A stretch of 64,000 bases of DNA from an uncultured bacterium (GTDB lineage: Bacteria > Bacillota > Clostridia > Lachnospirales > Lachnospiraceae): positions 14,254 to 78,253 of the forward strand of contig CAMWUN010000009.1 of the NCBI GenBank assembly GCA_947177425.1, written 5' to 3'. The position numbers and the translations under genes were made by a program. The notes under the pieces are model-generated. The model saw only the letters and a program-made list of their open reading frames with translations. It was not told the DNA's origin and searched no databases. Below, in pieces: positions 8,090 through 46,184 of the stretch. Position 1 is the stretch's first letter; every line of letters starts with the position of its first letter.

Positions 8090-9100
8090 TTGTCTATTAA
8101 CGCATTTGGCATTGACCTTGGAACCAACAATATTAAAATCTACAACCGTGCAGACGATGCAATTCTGGTTGAAAAAAATATGATTGCCATTGAAAATAAG
8201 GATACCTTATTTGCTTACGGCGATTCTGCTTTTGAAATGTATGAGAAGGCGCCGGGAAATATTCATATTTCCTATCCTCTTTCCAACGGAGTCATTGCAG
8301 ATATCAAAAATATGGAACTGCTGGTGAAATATTTTATCAGCGACATGACCAGAAGCAACATAAAGCCCGGGGATTACTATATTGCCGTGCCTACGGACGT
8401 TACCGGCGTGGAAAAGAGGGCTTTTTATGATTTGGTGAAGAACGCAGGCGTAAAGGCCAGAAGGGTCATGGTAGTGGAAAAGGCGGTTGCGGACGGACTG
8501 GGCCTGGACATTGACGTGAAGAACTCCCAGGGTGTCCTGATTGTCAACGTGGGATTCCATACCACGGAAATTTCCATCCTTTCCTTGGGGGGCATTGTAT
8601 TAAGCCGTCTGATTAAAACCGGCGGACAGAAATTTGATGACGCCATCCGGGCGGCAGTGCGGAAGGAATTCAGCCTGATTATCGGCGGAAAGACTGCGGA
8701 AAATGTGAAAATGGCCTTAAGCGACCTTGAAAAGGAAGGAAAGGGCGCAGTCGTTTATGGAAGGGATATTGTCACCGGGCTTCCCGTGGAAAGGGAACTT
8801 CCCACCCAGCTTATTGACGAGTCCTTAACAGAGCACTTCCATACCATCATCGACAATGTGAAAGTTATTCTGGAGAGGACGCCGCCGGAACTGGCGGCGG
8901 ACATTTACCGCCACGGTATCTATTTGACCGGAGGGGCTTCCCAGGTGAACCATCTGGCCCAGTTGATCCAGAAAGGAACGGGGCTTAAAGTCAATGTATC
9001 CGAAAATCCCGTTACCAGTGTAGCGTTAGGGCTTTCCAAGATTATTAAAGACGATAACTATAAGTCGGTTGCCTATGCAATTGAAGGAATGAGCACATGA
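8090..9100 (+). CDS. mreB: Rod shape-determining actin-like protein MreB (TTG start)
   Basis: GIDLGTNN, GGQKFD and IYLTGGAS actin-fold motifs; first gene of mreBCD. Confidence 0.92.
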   Translation: MSINAFGIDLGTNNIKIYNRADDAILVEKNMIAIENKDTLFAYGDSAFEMYEKAPGNIHISYPLSNGVIADIKNMELLVKYFISDMTRSNIKPGDYYIAVPTDVTGVEKRAFYDLVKNAGVKARRVMVVEKAVADGLGLDIDVKNSQGVLIVNVGFHTTEISILSLGGIVLSRLIKTGGQKFDDAIRAAVRKEFSLIIGGKTAENVKMALSDLEKEGKGAVVYGRDIVTGLPVERELPTQLIDESLTEHFHTIIDNVKVILERTPPELAADIYRHGIYLTGGASQVNHLAQLIQKGTGLKVNVSENPVTSVALGLSKIIKDDNYKSVAYAIEGMST

Positions 9101-28429: not shown

Positions 28430-29158
28430 ATGACATTACAGAAAGTACTTAGCTATATCCGGCGTGCAGCCGATGATTACCATATGATAGAATCAGGCGA
28501 TAAGATTGCCATCGGCATTTCCGGCGGTAAGGACAGCCTGACACTTCTCTATGGTCTTCACGGTCTTATGCGGTTTTATCCAAATCCATTTACTATTCAT
28601 GCGGTTACGGTTGATTTGGGGTTCCATAATCTTGATTTAACTGGAATACAGGAATTATGCAGTAAGCTTGAGATTCCCTATACAATTGTTAAAACAGACA
28701 TAGCCAATATAATATTTCAACAGCGTAAAGAAAGCAATCCCTGTTCTCTCTGTGCCAAAATGAGAAAAGGCGCCCTAAATGAAGCTATAAAAAAAGCAGG
28801 CTGTAACAAGGTAGCTTATGCGCACCACAAAGATGATGTAGTGGAAACCATGCTGATGTCCCTTATTTTTGAAGGAAGGTTCCACACCTTTAATCCGGTT
28901 ACATATTTAGACCGTATGGATTTAACAGTAATCAGGCCGCTTATGTATATGAATGAGTCAGATGTGATTGGATTCGTAAATAAATTCCAGATACCTGTAG
29001 TGAAAAGCCCCTGCCCTGCTGACGGCCATACGAAACGGGAATATATCAAAAACCTCTTACAGAAACTGAATCAGGAAAATCCCGGCGTAAAAGAGAGAAT
29101 GTTTACCGCCATACAAAACGGCAGGATGGAAGGATGGAGTTATTATGGAAAACAGTAA
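28430..29158 (+). CDS. ttcA: TtcA-family tRNA thiolation protein (PP-loop)
   Basis: SGGKDS, PCSLCAKMRKG, AHHKDD and IRPL motifs. Confidence 0.85.
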   Translation: MTLQKVLSYIRRAADDYHMIESGDKIAIGISGGKDSLTLLYGLHGLMRFYPNPFTIHAVTVDLGFHNLDLTGIQELCSKLEIPYTIVKTDIANIIFQQRKESNPCSLCAKMRKGALNEAIKKAGCNKVAYAHHKDDVVETMLMSLIFEGRFHTFNPVTYLDRMDLTVIRPLMYMNESDVIGFVNKFQIPVVKSPCPADGHTKREYIKNLLQKLNQENPGVKERMFTAIQNGRMEGWSYYGKQ

Positions 29159-30197
29159 AAATTATCATGATGAACAAAATAATTTAAACACCTTAAAGAT
29201 GCGGGAAGTACTTGCTGCCCTGCCCTCTTTCTGCAAGCAGTTTTTCAGGGGGATTCAGGAATACACCTCATCAAGGACAAGGCTTGCCTATGCCTATGAC
29301 CTGCGGGTGTTCTTTGAGTTCCTCCATGCAAATAACAGTGTCTGTGCTAAAATGGAAATTGTGGAGTTCCCATTGTCCATTCTGGACCAGATTACCAGAG
29401 AGGATATTGAGGAATATATGGACTATATTACTTATTATATAAAGGACGGCAGGGAATATGCCAATAACGAGAGAGGTAAAAAGAGAAAACTCTCTGCGCT
29501 GAAAAGCTTTTATAATTACTATTTCTGTGCAGAACTTATTAAAACCAATCCGGCAGCACTGGTGCCGCTCCCCAAACAGCATGAAAAGGAAATTATCCGG
29601 CTGGATGCAGACGAAGTGGCAATTCTGCTGGATCAGGTTGAAGAAGGGGAAAAACTTACCAAGTGCCAGCTAAAATATCATTCCAAAACCAAAATCCGCG
29701 ATATAGCGCTTCTCACTCTTCTACTGGGGACAGGCATACGTGTATCAGAATGTGTAGGACTAGATATCAGCGATGTGGATTTTAAAAACAACGGAATAAA
29801 AATAAGAAGAAAAGGCGGTTATGAAACAGTGGTATATTTTGGAGAGGAGGTTTCAGACGCACTTCACGATTATCTGGAAAAAAGACATCACATTATTCCG
29901 CTGGAAGGTCATGAAAACGCACTTTTCCTATCCATTCAGAACCGCCGTATCACCGTACGCGCGGTGGAGAATCTTGTAAAAAAATATACAGCTAACGTAA
30001 CGGGACTTAAAAAAATTACTCCGCATAAGCTTAGAAGCACCTATGGGACAACTCTGTATCAGGAAACCGGCGATATCTATCTGGTAGCCGATGTATTAGG
30101 GCATAAAGATGTAAATACAACCAGAAAACATTATGCTGCAATCGAGGACAACCGCCGCAGGAAAGCAGCTAAAGTGGTACGGCTGCGTGAAAAGTAA
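29145..30197 (+). CDS. Chromosomal tyrosine recombinase, Xer family (long, XerS-like N-terminus)
   Basis: 350 aa with intact catalytic residues (TGIRVSE, RRKGG, HKLR, LGH, HYA). Overlaps the ttcA stop, and no mobile-element context is visible. Confidence 0.85.
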   Translation: MENSKNYHDEQNNLNTLKMREVLAALPSFCKQFFRGIQEYTSSRTRLAYAYDLRVFFEFLHANNSVCAKMEIVEFPLSILDQITREDIEEYMDYITYYIKDGREYANNERGKKRKLSALKSFYNYYFCAELIKTNPAALVPLPKQHEKEIIRLDADEVAILLDQVEEGEKLTKCQLKYHSKTKIRDIALLTLLLGTGIRVSECVGLDISDVDFKNNGIKIRRKGGYETVVYFGEEVSDALHDYLEKRHHIIPLEGHENALFLSIQNRRITVRAVENLVKKYTANVTGLKKITPHKLRSTYGTTLYQETGDIYLVADVLGHKDVNTTRKHYAAIEDNRRRKAAKVVRLREK

Positions 30198-37556: not shown

Positions 37557-37590
37557 CTTTGTAATTTAATTTTTCTTGATATTTTCCTTA

Positions 37591-37602
37591 TATTTATGCA
37601 AA
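37591..37602. repeat. Putative attL core
   Basis: TATTTATGCAAA, identical to 46173-46184. Confidence 0.65.
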
Positions 37603-37742
37603 TACAATACATTATATTGAGTCAATGTTAATATTTTGCTGTCATTAGCTTTTTAATCCGCATAAAGCCCGGGTCTATAGTACATAACACCATAAACCGA
37701 CCTTTTGTCTTATCCTGTCTTAATCTTCGTTCTGATAAGCAT

Positions 37743-37778
37743 ATTGGAGTATAAATTGGGGTACAGATTGGGGTATGC
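37743..37778. repeat. Putative integrase arm-type sites (left), 3 x 12-bp period
   Basis: ATTGGAGTATAA / ATTGGGGTACAG / ATTGGGGTATGC. Confidence 0.7.
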
Positions 37779-38257
37779 TTATTTACTTAAAATTGCCAAA
37801 CTACCAATATGAGAATGTCCAGAAGTGTTCCCGCCGGTTTAATGTCATTACCTCTAATTCTGCTGTATCCACTTTAGCCTGTTTCAATCCGATTTATTCA
37901 TATTTCCCCCTCTGAAGACGCAAAAGCTCTATTTCTTTTTTGCGTCTGTTAACTCTTAAACTCCTGTACTATCTGCTAAACTGCGACTGTTGTACTGTCC
38001 TACTTTCTGGTATGGCGGATGCTTTTCTTTTTCCAGTAATTATGCGGTTTTTGGCAGTTCTTGCTATTCTGGCAAGCTCCTTAAATGTTATTAATTTAAC
38101 GTCTTCTTAAAACATCATTTTTGTACACCGTCCTGTCACGCGCACGCAAACACTGAAAAAAAAATCTTATAGCTAGGCAGCTTATGGGCCTCGGAAGCAC
38201 CGCATAGAGGTTATCTTTTTTGACAGTACCTTTTTGGAGTTTAAGCCCGCATTATAA

Positions 38258-38294
38258 AAAGCAGAGGCTATATATATATTCCAACCTCTGCTTT
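38258..38294 (-). terminator. Hairpin downstream of integrase
   Basis: AAAGCAGAGG ... CCTCTGCTTT 10-bp arms. Confidence 0.55.
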
Positions 38295-38317
38295 ACCTCT
38301 TTCCGTATGCCTGCTGC

Positions 38318-39445
38318 CTATAATGCTATATTGATACTGTTCATTTCTTCCTGCTTTGTATTGGGTAGTACATGGGAATATAAATCCATTGTCATTGACA
38401 GGCTGGCATGTCCAAGGATGGTCTTCAATACCTGGGCGCTCCCTCCCTGCTCTATGTACCTTGTCGCAAAGGTATCTCTTAATGCATGGGCAGAAAAGTG
38501 TTCTATCCTTTCCCCTCCTACTGTATTTATCCTTTTAAGGGTATCGCTGATTGCTTTATTTACGCTGGCATCGTATACCATGCCACCATAAGCCCCTTCA
38601 AAAACTGCCTGCGACAATGGTATCACATTGCCATGGACAAGGCTTAGTTTTTCCTTCTGGCTCTTTAAACCCCTTTTTATGGAATCATTCAACGGAATAT
38701 CCCTTATACTGGTCTTACTCTTAGGTGTGTCTGTAATATATTCACCTGTGGCGGCCCTACTGATTGTCTTGGTCACGTGGATCACATTGTTAATATAATC
38801 TATGTCACTCCATGTAAGGGCAGTTGCTTCCCCCACCCTCATACCGGTACATAGTAGCAGCGCTATCAGTTCGTATAGCCATTCCTGTTTCACATTCTCC
38901 ATAAACAGTTTCTGTTCATCCAGTGTTAATGCCCTGTGATAGGTTTCAGTTGCGGCCATGCCCTCCAACTTCAATGCCTTGACGCCTGCTGCTGGGCTCT
39001 TGATTATTACCCCGTCCACTACTGCATCATTAAAAATACTCTTAAGTTGTACAATCGTTATATTAACCGTTGTGGCCTTTAGTTTCTGTGCAAGTTCCTT
39101 TTGAAGACGTACGATTTCCCTTTTCTCTATATCCACCATCTTCCGTGAACCCATTGCTGGACTGATATGCTTCCGGTACCTGCACTCTATGTTAAGGGCT
39201 GTATTTCCCTTTATGGTCCCCTCCCTCGCGGCTTTCCACTCTTCATAATACTGGTCTAAGGTTATATTGCGGCTGCTTACATATGATCCAGATCTAATCT
39301 TTTCCCGTAGTTCTGCATCTTTGGCCTTACATTCTTTTAATGTATCAGCATACACACTGTAGCGCTTCCCGTTAATTGTGAACCGTGATTCGTACTTGCC
39401 ATCTTTCCTTTGCCGGTATCCGGCTGACAAACTCCTTTTAGCCAT
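38318..39445 (-). CDS. int: Tyrosine recombinase/integrase (phage/Tn916-like with N-terminal arm-binding domain)
   Basis: N-terminal RQRKDGKYESRF; catalytic TGMRVGE, TPKS, HALR, LGH and LYSH are intact; AAGGAG RBS. Confidence 0.93.
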   Translation of the reverse strand: MAKRSLSAGYRQRKDGKYESRFTINGKRYSVYADTLKECKAKDAELREKIRSGSYVSSRNITLDQYYEEWKAAREGTIKGNTALNIECRYRKHISPAMGSRKMVDIEKREIVRLQKELAQKLKATTVNITIVQLKSIFNDAVVDGVIIKSPAAGVKALKLEGMAATETYHRALTLDEQKLFMENVKQEWLYELIALLLCTGMRVGEATALTWSDIDYINNVIHVTKTISRAATGEYITDTPKSKTSIRDIPLNDSIKRGLKSQKEKLSLVHGNVIPLSQAVFEGAYGGMVYDASVNKAISDTLKRINTVGGERIEHFSAHALRDTFATRYIEQGGSAQVLKTILGHASLSMTMDLYSHVLPNTKQEEMNSINIAL

Positions 39446-39486
39446 ATCGCAATAACTCCTTTCTTTAGCATGAGGCAGCAGGCTTA

Positions 39487-40002
39487 TTAAACCTGCTTAT
39501 CCCCTTTCTTTTCTGCGGTCTCTCTGGCCGCTTTGGCGGCTGCGCGCTTGGCTTTCCTCTCCGCTCGCCTGCGTTCTTCCTCTGCCTCCCGCTCATCCAG
39601 TCTGCGGAGGCGTGCTTCTGTGTATCTGTCAATAAGCTGTCCGCCCCTGCTCTCATTATGGGCTTTTATGATATGCAAATAATTATGCTCTTGTACCAAT
39701 TTTAGGAAGCCGGTCTTATAAAAGTATTCAGTGAATGGACGTTCATCATTACACGCACCCCAGCCACTGTAATCCCTGCCAATTTCAAAATATGCCCTTT
39801 TCTCCCTACATTCATTAATAAATGCCGCTGCCCATTCTCCAAAAAGCTCTACTGCCCTGTAAAAAGGGACTGCATCATCACTCCCGATTAAGACAGCCTC
39901 CCCCTCAAAAAGTTCCACTGCTGCCGCTTTGTTTAACACTTCGTCTATCAATTTTCCATTTCCTTTCTTTACATGAGGCAGCAGGCATGATATACTGCCC
40001 AC
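39487..40002 (-). CDS. Hypothetical protein with charged helical C-terminus (true start probably near 39950-39960)
   Basis: ORF track; a Shine-Dalgarno-like AAAGAAAGGA at 39961-39970 suggests the first ~14 codons are not translated. Confidence 0.55.
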   Translation of the reverse strand: MGSISCLLPHVKKGNGKLIDEVLNKAAAVELFEGEAVLIGSDDAVPFYRAVELFGEWAAAFINECREKRAYFEIGRDYSGWGACNDERPFTEYFYKTGFLKLVQEHNYLHIIKAHNESRGGQLIDRYTEARLRRLDEREAEEERRRAERKAKRAAAKAARETAEKKGDKQV

Positions 40003-40086
40003 ATACCCCTAATTTACTTGTTACCGGGTTACCGCCCTTATCAATGCGTCACCATTGGTAAGGGCATTTTTATGTCTTTTTTGCTT

Positions 40087-40518
40087 TCATGCTGTAATGC
40101 TTACCAATGCACCAAACGACTCTTTATAGGCATATCCTCCGATGATCCTTGTTTCGGCTTTCAGTTCCATGCCACTATCAAGTACCGCTGCAATGCTCTG
40201 GGCTATGCCCTTTGGCAGATATCCTATATGTGCATACCCAATACTTTTTATGCCGATCACCACAGCTACCGCATATTTGTCAAATGCGTTTGCCCTGTCG
40301 CGTCTAAGGTAAGTGGTAAACTCTTCCGGCTTCCTCCCTGCTATGAACTGCAGTAACTCCTGTCTGTTATCAAAAGTAACGCCCTGGGCCTTTACGGACA
40401 TACCTTCCTTGATTCTTTTCCATGCCGTCTTAAATGCCTTGGAAAGGGAGTACCCAAGTTTGTGTAGCTGGTTCGCTATCGTTGTCACCGCCTTTCTTAT
40501 CTTTGTGATTTGTTCCAT
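40087..40518 (-). CDS. Stand-alone HIRAN-domain protein
   Basis: GVTFDNRQ..L...LRRDRANAFDKYAVAV...IGYLPK..A..IA..LD pattern is characteristic of HIRAN. Confidence 0.78.
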   Translation of the reverse strand: MEQITKIRKAVTTIANQLHKLGYSLSKAFKTAWKRIKEGMSVKAQGVTFDNRQELLQFIAGRKPEEFTTYLRRDRANAFDKYAVAVVIGIKSIGYAHIGYLPKGIAQSIAAVLDSGMELKAETRIIGGYAYKESFGALVSITA

Positions 40519-40680
40519 ATCCTGTACCTCTTTCTTTCATTTATGTTTATATTATAAATGTTTATATTTAAATTGCCAATGCATTAATTTAAACTTTTTT
40601 ATTTACTTTTTTCACGTACCTATTGTATTTTTAAACACTTTCATTTATAATATAGATAGATTGAAAGAGAGGTGACCACT

Positions 40681-40896
40681 TTGGCAGTATCAGAACAAAT
40701 CAAAATCCTATGTGTAAAATTGAATATCAGCGTTTCAGAATTGGCACGTTTATGTAATACCAGCCCGCAAGCATTTAGCCAGAAAATGAAACGTGAGGGA
40801 TTTACTCCTGCCGATTTAAAGAAAGTAGCAAAAGCGGCAGGGTGCAAATATGAAGGCTCGTTTATTCTACCTGATGGCGATAGGGTAACAGATTAA
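40681..40896 (+). CDS. Small XRE-family helix-turn-helix protein (TTG start)
   Basis: IKILCVKLNISVSELARLCNTSPQAFSQKM HTH; GAGAGGTG RBS; divergent from the HIRAN gene. Confidence 0.75.
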   Translation: MAVSEQIKILCVKLNISVSELARLCNTSPQAFSQKMKREGFTPADLKKVAKAAGCKYEGSFILPDGDRVTD

Positions 40897-41037
40897 GTGA
40901 AATAACAATGAAAGAGCATGGGCGAAAGCATGAACTCTTTTGTTATTCGGGCCATTGCGAAACCATTGAACATGACAACCAAAAAGAATAGCCACTACCA
41001 TAAACGAATACAATAACCATGAAAGGAAGTGCACATT

Positions 41038-41259
41038 ATGAGCAACCGTGAATTAGCAAAACAACTAATAGACCAGATACCCGAAAGCAAGATGTATTAT
41101 ATCGTCTCATACCTGCAGGGAGCAGCAGTCCCGGAAGAAACGCCCAACGCGGAAACTCTGGAAGCAATGGCCGAGGTACAGGATATGATTGAAAGCGGTA
41201 CCGGGGAACATTTCAGCGGCCCGACTTCTGATTTCCTTGCCATGCTGGCGGAGGGATAA
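41038..41259 (+). CDS. Putative antitoxin with DinJ/RelB-like C-terminus
   Basis: PNAETLEAMAE...F...SDFL resembles the DinJ toxin-binding tail; ends 3 bp before the toxin gene. Confidence 0.72.
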   Translation: MSNRELAKQLIDQIPESKMYYIVSYLQGAAVPEETPNAETLEAMAEVQDMIESGTGEHFSGPTSDFLAMLAEG

Positions 41260-41262
41260 GCC

Positions 41263-41535
41263 ATGTTGAGATTAAATACCTCCACCAGATTTAAACGGGA
41301 TTTTAAGCTGTGCCTGAAACGTGGGTATGACATACAGCTTCTTGAGGCTGTCATTGACACCCTGCGTATTCCCAGGCCACTTCCGGCAAAGAACCGGGAC
41401 CATAAGCTGTCTGGCAACCATTCGGGAGAGAAGGAATGTCATATCGCCCCGGACTGGCTTCTGATTTACCGTATCAGTGATGATGAATTATATCTTGTCC
41501 GTACAGGTACACATGCCGATCTGCTCAATATGTAA
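41263..41535 (+). CDS. yafQ: YafQ-family (RelE superfamily) mRNA interferase toxin
   Basis: FKRDFK, RDHKLSG, ECHIAPDWLLIY and RTGTHADL motifs. Confidence 0.9.
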   Translation: MLRLNTSTRFKRDFKLCLKRGYDIQLLEAVIDTLRIPRPLPAKNRDHKLSGNHSGEKECHIAPDWLLIYRISDDELYLVRTGTHADLLNM

Positions 41536-41866
41536 TAATCATTGTACCGGAGTTTCCGACTTCAAACCGGGAAACTGACACCAATATTGTTGTGAGAGGC
41601 AGCAGGCGTCACATTTACTCTTCCCCAATTATGGGGGTATGTATTGTGCCCTGCTGCCGTCCTGCATGATTTGGGGACGAAGTCTATGACGAAAGATCCA
41701 GTGCGTACGATTCAGTTTTGCGGGTCACACGGATGCAGAGGGCAAACTGCCCTGACTATCCAAAGCTGGAAAAGCATTTGATATCTTAAAGCCCACCCTA
41801 CAGGGAGTTCTGACTATTTATGGACGGGTTCCCTCTGTCCTCCCCGTAATGTTCTGCCAAAAGCTG

Positions 41867-42003
41867 TTGTGGCCTGCTGCCAGATATGCTATATTAGACG
41901 GGAAAGGGAACGCCACGGAAGCGGCCTGTCCCTGAAATATATTTCAACGTCACCCTCTTACGAGGCTGGCCGTCACTATTCGCAGTAGTGGCGGCTGTTT
42001 TTT
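41867..42003 (+). ncRNA. Candidate ~100-nt small RNA (promoter + terminator, no ORF)
   Basis: TTGTGG(41867)-N17-TATATT(41890) with extended TG; terminator GCCGTCACTA-N7-TAGTGGCGGC-TGTTTTTT at 41969-42003. Confidence 0.4.
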
Positions 42004-42168
42004 CGTCCTCCTTTACACATCGTGCATCTCCTTACAGAGCATTTGTAATAATTAATTGATTTTTAAAGCCAATTTCGCATTTTACCCCCTTACCCTTATA
42101 AAGTTCTACCCTACATCGTTTTAAGCCCGATTTGCTCATTTTCAAGCCCTGCTATAAGGAATTTCAAA

Positions 42169-42621
42169 CTACTTCCGCTTAAATCTCTCTGCCATCGCTT
42201 TACGCTGTTCCTCCGAAAGCCGTTTTGCCGGGCTAATCTTTATCCACGCTACCGGAATATGGGCGCACATGCTGCCGTCTGTATTTTCTGCAACAATCTG
42301 ACATTCCTCCGGGTGCCCTGCTGCCAGTTTCTTTATGCGGCTCTTATACCGCTCTTGTGAGAAAGAAACAGTTGCCCTCTCGCTGTTCTTGCTGAATTCA
42401 ATCACGTTTTCTATATTGCCGGTTATTTCCGGCAGCAGGATTTCACCCACTGTTACGCCAATGGCATCTGCTATTCTTTCCGCTGCGCTCTTGGATGCGT
42501 CACAACCTTTCATAATCCACTGGAAAGACTTTTGATAAAGCCCCGTCCTGCTGCATATTGTTTCTTCTGTCAGTTTCCTCTTCACCATGGTTTCCATAAT
42601 CTTTTTGCTGTTCAGTCTCAT
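42169..42621 (-). CDS. Hypothetical protein: N-terminal XRE-like HTH fused to a phage-type domain
   Basis: N-terminal ..LTEETICSRTGL......IM...ASKSAAERIADAIGVTVGEIL; C-terminal ENVIEF...RATVSFSQ..YKSRIKKLA..HPEEC. Confidence 0.65.
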   Translation of the reverse strand: MRLNSKKIMETMVKRKLTEETICSRTGLYQKSFQWIMKGCDASKSAAERIADAIGVTVGEILLPEITGNIENVIEFSKNSERATVSFSQERYKSRIKKLAAGHPEECQIVAENTDGSMCAHIPVAWIKISPAKRLSEEQRKAMAERFKRK

Positions 42622-43099
42622 ATTGTACCTTTCCTTCCCCGACTTACCGCCGTTACCTTAACACCTGTCTGTACTGTACTTTCCATGTCTGCCCCTGCCA
42701 ACGACCGTTTTAAATCTTAGCATTTCTTAGCATCCCTGAACCGGCTTTTCTCCACAATTTCCCCTGCCTCCGCATGCCTCAAACACTGATACAGACGGGA
42801 AATATTTATCATTGCATGCCAGCCGCTATTGTATGCAACGTTGCGTTTCAAAAATGCAACGTTGCAATCAGGACAGGGCATAAAAGAACTGTATTCCCGG
42901 ACGTTTCCCGCATGGCCCCCTGTTTTAACCTTAGCATTTTAGTATCACCAAACCGGATTTTCCCCACTGTCTTACCTGCCTCCACATGCTTCAGACACTG
43001 ATGCGGGCGGGGGTGCCATTACCATGCCGCCCCTATTGACTGAATGTTGTACAACATTGCAACCGGGAAAGCCCTTTAAAGGACTATAGCCCCCACTGA

Positions 43100-43215
43100 T
43101 ACGGTTCAACGCCATCATTTCCCCACTTGTGGCCCTGCCGGGGTTGCTGTCCGGGTGATACATTTTAGACAGCGCGCGGTAAAACTTTTTCAGGATGGCC
43201 TTTTCAGCTTCATCA
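43100..43215 (-). pseudogene. J-domain (DnaJ-like HPD) remnant
   Basis: EKAILKKFYRALSKMYHPDSNPG...EMMALN lies within ORF 42972-43283; the flanking translation looks non-native. Confidence 0.55.
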
Positions 43216-43245
43216 TCGCCTCTGTGGCAGCAGGGCATACCAGAT

Positions 43246-44186
43246 TCATTTCCCCGCAGTGCTGCTGCCCCATGGTGAACCATTTATCTTTTCAAGAAGC
43301 TTCTGCTTTTCCTGCCGCATGATACTCCTTCTTACAGGTTCTTCCGGGAGCTTTACAAAAAACGTTGCACACTCTATCCTGTCTGTTATCCTGTCATTTA
43401 TTTTCAGATGTTCTATGGGTATATTGCTGGTATAGACTGTCGGGAGCCGGTTCACATACCTTTCATTTACCAGCCTGTACAGCACCGTGTCTATCCATTC
43501 TTTTGCCGACATCTGCACGCCGATATCATCCAGTACCAGAAGTCCGGTCCCATAGAGCGCCTTTACATCTTCGTCTTTCCCGTCGAATCCTTTTTTGGTC
43601 ATTTCCAGGAAATCCAGTATATTTACAAACTTTACACTTCCTGTGTATCTTTTGGCGATCTCATTCAGCAGGCAGCAGGACAGCATGGTTTTGCCGCTCC
43701 CCTTTGTGCCGGAATATATGTACAGCCCCATCCCACTATCCCGAAACTCCTGATATCTGGTAATGTAACTGTTGACAAGATTTTTTCGGATGTGGTGTCA
43801 GCCTTATACCTGTCCCATCTGAAATCCCTTCCGTCCAGACCGATAAATTCAAATGGCATCATTGCCCTTATCCTTCTGTACTCCGCCTCACCACTGGTGA
43901 CACCTGCCGGAGGTAAAAATATCTCATACCCTTTCCTGTCTTCCAGAAGGTACCCTTTTTCGGTTACAGAAAGGCATATATCATTAAGTTCATCGTTTGT
44001 CAGGTTCTCCCATCTGGGATAGTCCTTAAGGGCTTTCCGCATGTATATGCGCCTTTCGCTCAATTCTTCCAGATTCATTTCCATGGCCCGGTATGTAAGG
44101 CCGTCTTTTTTCAGCAGCCTGAACCCTGCAAGCTCTTTTCCGCTTAACCCGGCCGTTGCACCGGTGCAACTTCTTTCTTCCATCAT
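43246..44186 (-). pseudogene. DnaC/IstB-like AAA+ helicase loader, split by a 1-nt frameshift at 43781-43786
   Basis: The upstream ORF runs into the downstream frame (NLVNSYITRYQEFRDSGMGLYIYSGTKGSGKT, Walker B LLVLDDIG) if one A is added to an A6 run. Confidence 0.78.
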
Positions 44187-44194
44187 CCTGTCTC

Positions 44195-45013
44195 CTAAAA
44201 TGGCCCGTCCGTGTCTGAAACACTATTTCCACCAAGCCCCTTATACATCTCCTTATACTCCGGCGGGTACTCATATTCCTCCTGCCTCTGATCCTGCTGC
44301 CGCCCGGATGCTTTATACGCGCCGCCCCTGTCCTGTTCCCTTGAAAGCCAGTTATTGATAAAGCGGTCTATCCCCCTTCTGGTTTTCCTGCGTACAGGGT
44401 TTGAGTCAAGCCATGCGGCCATCTTATACAGTTCCTGCTTAATGTCCACCGCCGGATAGGCTCCGCCCCATTTTTCAATCCGCTGTAATGGCACATCATA
44501 GTCCGTACCGTCTATCAGAGGCAGCAGTATCCCACTCAAATCTGCCGCCGGCTGTTCTGGCTCCGGGCATATAGTATTTATACTATACTTATCTATACTA
44601 TACTTACCTATACTAACCTTATCTGGGTTTCCCGCAGGTATGTCGCTTGGTATACCATCCGGTATGCCAGTGGGAAACAACTCATATTTCCCGTTATTAC
44701 TGCACAACATCCCTTTTTCCCTTAAAAATCTGGTTTCCTTATATCTGTCAGTCCTAATGCTGTTATTCTGCTTCCAGTGGCATATAACAATTATCCCGTT
44801 TTCAAAGGGTATCACATATCCCTTTGAAAACAGTATCTTCATATCGTCACTGGAACAATTTGCAATCTTGACAATCCGCCTTGGACTTGAAACGAATCCA
44901 TCATCGTCTGCCCTCATTCCCAAATGGAAGTACAGGCATTGCGCTGAAATAGGCATGTCCAAAAAATTATCCGTATCCACTACATCAAGACTGAACATCC
45001 TTCTGTTTGCCAT
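44195..45013 (-). CDS. Phage-type replication initiator (replisome organiser)
   Basis: MANRRMFSLDVVDTDNFLDMP.SAQCLYFHLGMRADDDGFV N-terminus, typical of Firmicutes phage replisome organisers; internal tandem repeats; precedes the DnaC-like gene. Confidence 0.82.
   Translation of the reverse strand: MANRRMFSLDVVDTDNFLDMPISAQCLYFHLGMRADDDGFVSSPRRIVKIANCSSDDMKILFSKGYVIPFENGIIVICHWKQNNSIRTDRYKETRFLREKGMLCSNNGKYELFPTGIPDGIPSDIPAGNPDKVSIGKYSIDKYSINTICPEPEQPAADLSGILLPLIDGTDYDVPLQRIEKWGGAYPAVDIKQELYKMAAWLDSNPVRRKTRRGIDRFINNWLSREQDRGGAYKASGRQQDQRQEEYEYPPEYKEMYKGLGGNSVSDTDGPF
44577..44621. repeat. Three tandem 15-bp AT-rich repeats inside rep (putative origin)
   Basis: TTTATACTATACTTA / TCTATACTATACTTA / CCTATACTAACCTTA. 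Confidence 0.7.
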
Positions 45014-45029
45014 CTGAACTCCTTTCACA

Positions 45030-45251
45030 TCACAGCGCATTTTTCTTCTGTACTTCATTGCCTGCCAGTCCGTCAAGATATCGCTCTATCCTGTCCACCT
45101 TGTAAAGAACCCTTTTCCCTATCTGGATCCTTGCACCTGCTGCCTCGCCTATTTTTATGGCGGTAGGTCTTCCACAGTCCAGTATCTTAGCGAGTGTTTC
45201 CGCGTTAACTGATACTTTGTTACTGGCTTCCATTGTCCTGGTTTTCCTCAT
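45030..45251 (-). CDS. Small excisionase/Cro-like DNA-binding protein
   Basis: VNAETLAKILDCGRPTAIKI...ARIQIGKRVLYKVDRIERYL winged-HTH pattern; divergent from the repressor. Confidence 0.68.
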   Translation of the reverse strand: MRKTRTMEASNKVSVNAETLAKILDCGRPTAIKIGEAAGARIQIGKRVLYKVDRIERYLDGLAGNEVQKKNAL

Positions 45252-45313
45252 ACTTTGAAATCTCCTTTACATGTTTTGTCTTTATCATTTACTTGTACTG
45301 ATATGTATGATAT

Positions 45314-45396
45314 TATTGTTGCGTAACGTGATTATATCGCAACAATAGTTAGAAGTAAATATTTGTTGCTTATATTTTTATTGATGCAACAAATAT
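45314..45396. promoter_or_regulatory. Paired inverted-repeat operators in the repressor/xis switch
   Basis: TATTGTTGCG-N14-CGCAACAATA (45314-45347) and ATATTTGTTGC-N16-GCAACAAATAT (45359-45396). Confidence 0.65.
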
Positions 45397-45417
45397 ATTC
45401 GCAAGGAGGGATTTCTT

Positions 45418-46086
45418 ATGTTGAGTGAAACAAAAATAAATGAAAATATGCAAATATTTAAAGAGCGGCTAAAGGCTTTACGCGGTAAGAGAAGTCTTCA
45501 AGAGGTTGCCCATGACTTGGGTATATCAAGGGCAACTTTAGGATATTATGAAAACGGAGATAGGAAACCGGATGTTGAAGTATTATTAAAAATTGCATCA
45601 TACTACAATGTTTCCTGTGATTACCTATTAGGTCTAACCGACTGCTTAACACCTGACATTGACAATAGGGCAATTTCGGAAAAAACTGGATTAAGTGAAG
45701 AAGCTGTAGAATACTTATGCTTTTGCAATGATATCGCACATACTGAAACGGATAGTAAGTATGGAAATTATTTCATGCATACAGTTAATTTACTTTTATT
45801 TCCAGAATGTAGATTAGTAGACCAAATATCCGGCTATCTAAACTTCAATTTTGATTTTGCGGCAGAAGTACAGTATAATGAATCCGAACACAATTATGAA
45901 ATATCCTCCAATACCATTTCCCTTGATGCTTTTGCGATTTTTGATAAAAATGGTGCCATGTCAATTCGAGTTAACAGTGAACTTATTAATAAAGCACTAT
46001 TGGTTAACATCCAAAATGAACTTGTGCAAATGAGAAAGCAAATTCTGGAAAGTAAATTATCAAATTGCGGTTTGGATAAAGAATAA
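45418..46086 (+). CDS. XRE-family repressor (HTH + uncharacterised C-terminal domain)
   Basis: FKERLKALRG..SLQEVAHDLGISRATLGYYENGDRKPD....LKIASYYNVSCDYLLG. Confidence 0.88.
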   Translation: MLSETKINENMQIFKERLKALRGKRSLQEVAHDLGISRATLGYYENGDRKPDVEVLLKIASYYNVSCDYLLGLTDCLTPDIDNRAISEKTGLSEEAVEYLCFCNDIAHTETDSKYGNYFMHTVNLLLFPECRLVDQISGYLNFNFDFAAEVQYNESEHNYEISSNTISLDAFAIFDKNGAMSIRVNSELINKALLVNIQNELVQMRKQILESKLSNCGLDKE

Positions 46087-46093
46087 AATTACT

Positions 46094-46117
46094 ATTGGGG
46101 TAAAAATTGGGGTAGAA
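46094..46117. repeat. Putative integrase arm-type sites (right), 2 x 12-bp period
   Basis: ATTGGGGTAAAA / ATTGGGGTAGAA, in the same orientation as the left set. Confidence 0.7.
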
Positions 46118-46172
46118 ACCATTTACCGTAGGCGGAAAGCCTTATAAATAGGGCACTTTTCTCAAAAAAATG

Positions 46173-46184
46173 TATTTATGCAAA
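46173..46184. repeat. Putative attR core
   Basis: TATTTATGCAAA, identical to 37591-37602. Confidence 0.65.

Follow-up and report, generated by a model that had tools for sequence, protein, structure and literature searches.

A candidate phage-derived, satellite-like island of an undescribed family, present as a reduced copy upstream of livK in an uncultured Lachnospiraceae bacterium

Phage-inducible chromosomal islands (PICIs) of Gram-positive bacteria are elements of approx. 9 kb that carry an integrase, a repressor divergent from an early operon led by an excisionase-like helix-turn-helix (HTH) protein, a replication module and cargo, and that have no virion or lysis genes (PMC10085698). 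[quoted passage not shown] In the integrative mobilizable elements (IMEs), e.g., Tn6104 of Clostridioides difficile, a replisome organiser, DnaC and a toxin-antitoxin (TA) pair occur together in a small integrated element of the Firmicutes (PMC5704250). No phage satellites of Lachnospiraceae or of other strictly anaerobic gut Firmicutes were found described in the literature searched. Here we describe an island of 8,582 bp (37591-46172, followed by the second copy of a 12-bp core at 46173-46184) in a stretch of 64,000 nucleotides, referred to below as the window, from an uncultured bacterium of the Lachnospiraceae (GCA_947177425.1, contig CAMWUN010000009.1, positions 14,254 to 78,253). The names carried by its ribosomal-protein cluster and by close relatives of the island proteins also indicate a Lachnospiraceae host. 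The island resembles PICIs in all the features listed above. We consider, with roughly even confidence, that it is a phage-derived, site-specifically integrated 'hitcher' belonging to an undescribed PICI-like family, and that the copy present in the window is a reduced one.

The island is a precise insertion at TATTTATGCAAA, between the livK promoter and the gene for a DUF378 protein. A previous sequence-only reading of the window had pointed out a 12-bp direct repeat at the ends, and this core is found at attL (37591..37602) and at attR (46173..46184). The same reading had described the arm-type repeats of the motif ATTGGRGTA that accompany the cores with a 12-bp period; three of them form the P' arm (37743..37775, plus strand, with starts at 37743, 37755 and 37767) and two, with the sequence ATTGGGGTA, the P arm (46094..46114, plus strand, with starts at 46094 and 46106). 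The motif has five exact matches in the whole window, all five at the island ends, on one strand and with the 12-bp period; in a shuffle control, at least five matches anywhere were obtained in 3 of 100 shuffles, and none would cluster likewise. The same pair of P-arm repeats is present in a close relative of the island (L029), and the integrase would be expected to bind at these arm repeats. When the predicted empty junction was searched for in JGI metagenomes, one contig matched (Ga0224740_10216, L009), in which livK (94% amino acid identity) adjoins the DUF378 gene (97%) with one core between them; its junctions are exactly those predicted, with flanks that align to attL on one side and to attR on the other. 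From the direct repeat, the arm repeats and the single-core empty site, it is therefore concluded that the island is an 8,582-bp insertion produced by site-specific recombination. The livK promoter (TTGACA-17-TATTAT, 37556-37528, minus strand) is undamaged and lies approx. 35 bp from the core, in agreement with the proposal that the target is an intergenic site upstream of the liv promoter. The G+C content of the island is 0.435, versus 0.438 for the rest of the window. Five copies were found at the liv site with 99.9-100% DNA identity, and the island DNA is identical to that of contig JAIEDB010000050 of GCA_029068185.1; the near-identity of the five copies indicates one lineage with no sign of recent movement. 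Length variants between the copies (171/154, 150/85 and 161/146 residues) were discarded as gene-caller differences.

The empty site also shows a weak promoter-like sequence directed toward the DUF378 gene (TTGATT-17-TATATT, 1420-1448 of L009), with a -10 box that overlaps the att core. After insertion this weak promoter (37577-37595 of the window) is left at attL, separated by 8.6 kb from the DUF378 gene, and therefore the island may alter the expression of this gene.

The tyrosine integrase (38318..39445, minus strand, 375 residues; Pfam PF00589, PF14659 and PF02920) is of the Tn916/Tn1549 type and, as had been stated, is intact; the catalytic residues R203, H320xxR323, H346 and Y356 are all present, as well as the Tn916-type N-terminal arm-binding domain, PF02920. 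Its closest solved structure is the 'Int protein' of 6EMY/6EMZ (E 9e-21), which we take to be the integrase of Tn1549. The likeness to the Tn916/Tn1549 system extends to the short arm repeats that flank the core. In contrast, Tn916 has variable coupling sequences and many AT-rich targets, whereas the island has a fixed 12-bp core, one specific target and no conjugation module, so that in terms of membership in the Tn916 family only the type of integrase is common to both. A non-coding arm of 715 bp separates int from attL. Just after the int stop codon a hairpin followed by a T-run can be read from the sequence (38260..38292, minus strand), and it is the likely int terminator; it was not listed by the terminator scan because its loop has 17 nt.

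The integrase gene is part of a second unit formed by three minus-strand genes, HIRAN, u171 and int, divergent from a small HTH gene. The HIRAN-domain protein (40087..40518, minus strand, 143 residues, PF08797) is also found in the related islands L018, L100 and L011-L013, and the HTH protein (40672..40896, plus strand, 74 residues, Cro/C1-type, PF13443) is 79% identical to a protein placed likewise upstream of a 52%-identical integrase in three IMG/VR records (L031-L033). Both belong to the conserved backbone of the family and are not the cargo that the sequence-only reading had assumed; that reading was right in counting as cargo the YafQ TA pair described below. Between HIRAN and the HTH gene lies a second regulatory region (40548..40654) with a promoter-like site and an inverted repeat of 25 nt (40548-40572 and 40630-40654) that could act as an operator. 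The promoter-like site is strong (TTGGCA-17-TATAAT, 40579-40551, minus strand) and precedes HIRAN-u171-int; int, which had been taken for the last gene of one long minus-strand run, is thus not only the tail of one operon.

The protein u171 (39487..39951, minus strand, 154 residues) is the conserved partner of the integrase, and in the loci examined its homologues always adjoin an integrase gene. It has no match in Pfam or PHROGs, and its family is small, with 74 clusters and 291 representatives among 1.84 billion proteins. The AlphaFold2 model is confident (predicted local distance difference test, pLDDT, 93) and shows a small alpha/beta N-terminal domain, KilA-N/Bro-N-like or winged-helix-like, that precedes a long basic coiled coil of extended helices; fold matches are weak, i.e., to KilA-N/Bro-N (E 0.013), to an excisionase and to winged-helix regulators. 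Because such a confident model yields only these matches, the possibility that u171 is a terminase was rejected.

At the other end of the island, an XRE-family repressor of 222 residues (45418..46086, plus strand) with an N-terminal HTH_3 domain, in which neither an S24 nor an M78 peptidase domain could be recognised, is divergent from an early operon that comprises xis, the organiser gene and dnaC, a gene order that had already been recognised. Two palindromes, TTGTTGC-N16-GCAACAA, located at 45316-45345 and 45363-45392 (region 45316..45392), overlap the early promoter-like site (45359-45331, minus strand), and are the putative operators to which the XRE protein would bind. The first gene of the early operon (45030..45251, minus strand) encodes an HTH protein of 73 residues with a weak DUF6462 match, whose counterpart in L018 is 80% identical and whose equivalent in L100 is a DUF6462 protein; it is a putative excisionase. 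It is followed by the gene of a DnaD-like replisome organiser of phage type (44195..45013, minus strand, 272 residues; phrog_8489, E 1e-55) that is 55% identical to gp42, the 'replisome organizer' of Ruminococcus phage phiRgIBDN1, and 39% identical to the protein of Tuc2009. This homologous organiser links the island to the temperate siphophages of Lachnospiraceae and to the lactococcal Tuc2009-type modules; nevertheless, these phages have 35-40 kb with full late regions. Organisers of this family are very numerous (4,952 clusters at E<=1e-10), and the N-terminal domain is frequent in IMG/VR phage genomes of 30-40 kb as well as being present in phiRgIBDN1. In phages of the Tuc2009/phiRgIBDN1 type, origin-like repeats are located inside the organiser gene, and the iteron-like repeats (44576-44611) and the palindrome (44627-44678) found within the organiser gene of the island are the likely origin.

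The next gene reveals that the copy in the window is damaged. The dnaC-like helicase loader gene (43246..44186, minus strand; phrog_50, and PRK08116 from position 116 only) is split by a frameshift into an N-terminal part of 173 residues (44186-43665) and a C-terminal AAA+ part of 161 residues (43731-43246), whereas in L018, L021 and L029 dnaC is a single open reading frame (ORF) of 306-313 residues. The DNA of L029, with an intact dnaC of 313 residues, is 94-98% identical across the replication module, and its alignment places the lesion at a run of six A residues (43781-43786) versus seven in L029, i.e., the loss of one nucleotide. The same A6 is found in four other assemblies of the island, and therefore the frameshift is not a sequencing error of one assembly. 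The organiser and loader pair proposed by the sequence-only reading has thus been identified, but the pair is not intact here. Moreover, approx. 936 bp of L029 are absent from the window, comprising an ORF of 110 residues and most of a 269-residue J-domain gene (phrog_32441); of the latter only the tail is left as a truncated remnant (42972..43283, minus strand). Between this remnant and u150, the next gene, a direct repeat of 73 nt with 77% identity was observed (42727-42799 and 42939-43011), in which the 3' end of the truncated gene is possibly represented by two incomplete copies.

The compact layout of the island recurs in relatives at 27-80% protein identity. These are islands of 8-11 kb from Lachnospiraceae and other Clostridia with the order repressor and xis, replication module, variable cargo, HTH and HIRAN, the 154-residue protein and a Tn916/Tn1549-type integrase; the replication module is either an organiser with DnaC or a D5-type primase-helicase. 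Among them, L018 is a contig of 7.7 kb with XRE, Xis, RepO (the organiser), DnaC, a 186-residue protein, a Uma2 cargo gene, HIRAN, a u171 homologue and Int, in which Int, Xis, RepO and DnaC are 79%, 80%, 68% and 73% identical to the window proteins. The 186-residue protein encoded after dnaC is a small terminase, TerS (phrog_57, E 1.5e-37), 39-43% identical to the annotated TerS of Roseburia phage Shimadzu and of Faecalibacterium phages Lagaffe and Taranis. A second type (L100-L103, 509 collection blocks) has a repressor, DUF6462, a D5_N/DUF5906 primase-helicase in place of RepO/DnaC, ERCC4, a small HTH, HIRAN, u171 (70%) and a Tn916-type integrase, and shows analogous paired arm repeats at both ends. 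In a third, very common type of approx. 8.5 kb (L112-L121, 941 collection blocks), which adjoins rpsI/rplM, an XRE-Int-118-residue protein-u171 (48%) side is divergent from two small genes, a D5 primase-helicase, HNH and a GP3_package TerS; these are the genes of a classic PICI, accompanied by a serine resolvase, and in several copies the integrase or the primase-helicase is truncated. Islands with RepO, full-length DnaC and HIRAN but a different integrase were found in mouse-gut Clostridia (L011-L013). In L011 the island has approx. 8.3 kb and, unlike the island in the window with its intergenic target, has integrated into the 3' end of a tRNA-Met gene, flanked by an imperfect (87%) direct repeat of approx. 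89 bp that includes the tRNA 3' end (258-334 and 8575-8663). A second member, L012 (CANBAX010000035.1, 8254 bp), is a circular permutation of the integrated L011 with an exact terminal overlap of 55 bp, which points to an excised circle or a tandem of the RepO/DnaC/HIRAN island. A late-activator-like gene is present in L012, and sigma-like genes in L015 and L107. Decayed copies are frequent (L017, L114, L115 and L118).

Some additional observations were made on these loci. The L100 island adjoins another Tn916-type integrase gene and is bracketed, besides its own paired TATCTCAAT arm repeats, by a second set of repeats (ACAACAAATTTACA...; regions 1-1160 and 11948-12400 of L100); the second integrase together with the second repeat set suggests tandem islands. 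In Clostridium sp. ASF356 (L017; NZ_CP097810, approx. 736-743 kb), a strain of the Altered Schaedler Flora, there is a decayed island of the L013 type, with a truncated integrase, an organiser shortened to 121 residues and a deletion of DnaC. Another compact, phage-like element is a 12-kb island (L107-L110); this island, with the order int-PemK-like-XRE / cro-HTH_17-ERF-RepO-DnaC-...-SocA-...-sigma-like, with an organiser of the same family as the one in the window, ends at the host azlCD genes and contains no structural gene. Other candidates were set aside: the IMG/VR integrase relatives L030-L034, which are uninformative because their resemblance to the island is confined to int, the small HTH and a portion of u150, and three short human-faecal 'Bacteriophage sp.' records (L104-L106) that have a similar TerS and nothing else in common with it. 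In scans of IMG/VR, the u171 profile retrieved one locus and the TerS of L018 four, with no island-like context.

As annotated, the genes for regulation and replication in the family are of phage type, and genes for transfer or for virions are absent. As had been reported for the island, no relaxase, type IV secretion system, terminase or capsid family, nor any tail or lysis family, was detected in it with Pfam, PHROGs and NCBIfam; likewise, no relaxase or conjugation, capsid, tail or lysis family was found in the relatives examined, including L018, L100 and L112. A satellite life style is the best-supported reading for the family, in which relatives carry terS as PICIs do, and one type combines a D5 primase-helicase, HNH and terS. 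Measured against the PICI core set of SatelliteFinder, the window has the integrase and no tail, holin or portal genes, and only arguably the regulation module (an alpA, merR or stl homologue), with the XRE repressor and the small HTH of weak DUF6462 match in the right places. On the other hand, the primase-replicase is replaced by the organiser and DnaC (D5_N/DUF5906 proteins occur in L100 and L112), the small terminase is absent from the window and present in L018 and L112, and no match to a capsid-morphogenesis gene was found in the window. Since the last three components are missing, the island in the window should not be filed as a PICI, though the family would work like one; the capsid-morphogenesis gene is, for its part, also absent from PICIs of the SaPI type (PMC10085698). 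A further difference from PICIs lies in int, which in the island is not beside the repressor but at the far end, behind an HTH-controlled unit of its own with HIRAN and u171; the Tn916-like integrase and the intergenic target also depart from PICIs. The family is probably new; no description of it was found in the literature searched. The suggestion of the sequence-only reading that the island may belong to an undescribed Lachnospiraceae satellite family gains support from the recurrent compact islands, the terS of L018 and the L112 gene set, but this copy is not intact, with its broken dnaC, its truncated neighbouring gene and its lack of terS.

Beyond the integration chemistry seen in the core, the arm repeats and the empty site, and the identities of the parts, the life cycle proposed here is modelled on PICIs and on the relatives that carry terS. 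The XRE repressor, which has no self-cleavage domain, would keep the early operon off through the two palindromic operators, until repression is relieved by a helper-phage product or by another signal. Xis and Int would then excise the island as a circle, and the organiser and the loader would bring the host helicase to the internal origin inside repO for theta replication. The amplified DNA would be packaged in capsids of the helper phage, on which the element would thus depend, and in some relatives their own small terminase may direct this packaging. In the copy described here repression and excision are probably still possible, whereas the frameshifted loader and the absent terS suggest that it is impaired for replication and has no self-directed packaging; it may persist mainly by vertical descent, aided by the TA pair.

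Several results weigh against this interpretation. The evidence for induction and packaging by a helper is indirect, consisting of terS in relatives and of the circular contig, and the near-identical copies at the liv site document no mobility of this particular element. The attP junction sequence was not found in IMG/VR, the whole island matched no deposited phage or plasmid in a megablast, and the 715-bp non-coding arm matched no phage in a sensitive blastn. Among the three full HIRAN-u171-Int members terS is recognised in one (L018, and not in L100 or in the window), and the circular form of L012, with its different integrase, is evidence for a neighbouring lineage only. In addition, a Tn916-type integrase with RepO, DnaC and a TA pair is also typical of conjugatively mobilised islands (PMC5704250). 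A broader view, in which the island represents a widespread undescribed satellite family of Lachnospiraceae and related gut Clostridia with a conserved integration unit, swappable replication, optional terS and terS-less minimalist members packaged via the helper terminase, is put forward here only tentatively, as a rather doubtful extension. The integration unit that would define this proposed family consists of the small HTH divergent from HIRAN, the KilA-N-like coiled-coil protein and the Tn916-type integrase.

Among the alternatives, the island could be a fully functional minimalist satellite, in which the split dnaC is tolerated or corrected by slippage and the helper terminase reads a pac or cos site in a conserved non-coding stretch, as happens in PICMIs or in PICIs of the cos type. 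Known satellites include some that have no packaging genes, and the PICMIs resemble the island in size and in their small gene content (PMC10803314), although genes, hosts and helpers are different. The state of the element gives this proposal some weight, i.e., int, xis, the repressor, the organiser, the att cores and all the arm repeats are undamaged, the AAA+ half of dnaC retains its own ATG and Walker motifs, a -1 slip after the Lys codon of GAA-AAA-A would restore the exact sequence of the L029 protein, and the non-coding stretches are conserved with relatives. However, a run of A6 is short for efficient slippage, and the frameshift is not conserved, since the closest relative has an unbroken A7 dnaC. 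In addition, the gene that adjoins dnaC is also truncated, the non-coding regions match no phage, and all copies are clonal and at one site; this explanation is considered unlikely.

The island could instead be an IME that excises, replicates as a small theta plasmid and is moved by a co-resident conjugative element through an unrecognised oriT (origin of transfer) or a non-canonical relaxase. Its integration and excision module, with the arm-binding integrase of Tn916/Tn1549 type, would suit such an element, and the organiser, DnaC and TA pair constitute the known maintenance set of Tn6104 and of streptococcal IMEs (PMC5704250), so that this set alone does not point to a phage; furthermore, islands with no conjugation gene may be IMEs that have only an oriT (PMC5704250). 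The model of u171 resembles the oriT-binding TcpK of pCW3, but weakly (E 0.85-1.1) and not significantly. Neither the window nor the relatives examined contain a recognisable mobilisation module, be it a relaxase, a coupling protein or any other family of conjugation proteins. IMEs of the Tn6104 type reportedly encode mobilisation genes and use serine recombinases, and neither was found in the island. The relatives have a small terminase, HNH, late-activator or sigma-like genes and early regions of phage type, all of which serve phage packaging and not conjugation. An IME, for which no gene speaks, seems quite improbable. The third alternative, a full temperate prophage from which deletion has removed the late genes, is very improbable indeed, for although the N-terminal domain of the organiser occurs in many IMG/VR phage genomes of 30-40 kb and in phiRgIBDN1, this copy has a frameshift and a truncated gene, and decay is common among the related islands, no fragment of any structural or lysis gene was found, the same compact layout is kept in relatives at 27-80% protein identity, one of which was assembled as a circle of 8.2 kb, and the identical att cores, with arm repeats at both ends, beside int and the repressor, respectively, enclose exactly 8.6 kb in accordance with the empty site, so that it is this unit itself that recombines, a discrete element as the sequence-only reading had held.

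Having favoured the reading of a reduced, phage-derived hitcher, the remaining regions of the island can be considered. The cargo (41029..41535, plus strand) is a TA pair formed by a protein of 76 residues (41029-41259), a putative antitoxin from its position, and a YafQ-family toxin (41263-41535; PF15738, E 6e-32). The cargo slot is variable, since L018 has in its place Uma2/PDC-S03, Uma2 being a PADLOC candidate. Between the cargo and the early unit there is a conserved non-coding module boundary (41873..42003) with a terminator-like hairpin of 14-bp stem (41967-41997), 74% identical to a non-coding stretch of the D5-type relative L100. In the direction of the early unit this boundary comes after u150 (42169..42621, minus strand, 150 residues, phrog_1709), a regulator in which a Cro/CI-type HTH is combined with a small domain at the C-terminus; in its AlphaFold2 model (pLDDT 83) the N-terminal domain matches 434 Cro, SinR and C.AhdI, and the protein shares 41% identity with one encoded in the early region of L021. 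A terminase role for u150 was rejected in view of this HTH and of the position of its homologue in an early region.

Downstream of int lies a non-coding orphan leader (38140..38235, within about 38100-38260, minus strand), homologous to the sequence just upstream of the L018 terS. The identity is 77% over 99 nt, and the L018 alignment reaches the ribosome-binding site and the ATG of terS; at that end the window has ATGATGTTTTAA and no ORF, three codons being followed by a stop. The leader may mark the place of a terS that has been lost, or may be a regulatory cassette that is portable, and any promoter within it would be read through attL into livK. A tblastn of the L018 TerS against the island detected no terS remnant even at E 10, the two leader sequences gave no covariation in support of an RNA structure, and no Rfam match at E<=1 was found in the island. 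Another repeated element is the 10-mer GCCTGCTGCC, with five copies in the 64-kb window, versus 0.08 expected, all five inside the island (38309, 39474, 39977, 41598 and 41872); two of these copies precede the start codons of u171 and int by 26-33 nt, and they are placed likewise in L100. Eleven copies are present in L018, and some of the copies in relatives are explained by DnaC coding sequence (CCLLNE). Elsewhere in the window, a gene for a Xer-like tyrosine recombinase of 350 residues (29145-30197) lies near lexA, in overlap with an ATP_bind_3 (TilS-like) gene; it seems to have no relation to the island.

Confirmation of the family would mean that gut Lachnospiraceae have a further, common class of elements that depend on a helper, and that in satellite backbones a phage organiser and loader pair can take the place of a primase-helicase. 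HIRAN and the 154-residue protein beside int would in that case serve as marker genes to find such islands in metagenomes. The variable slot between the backbone units, occupied by a TA pair here and by a candidate defence gene in a relative, is relevant to the dynamics between phages and bacteria in the gut.

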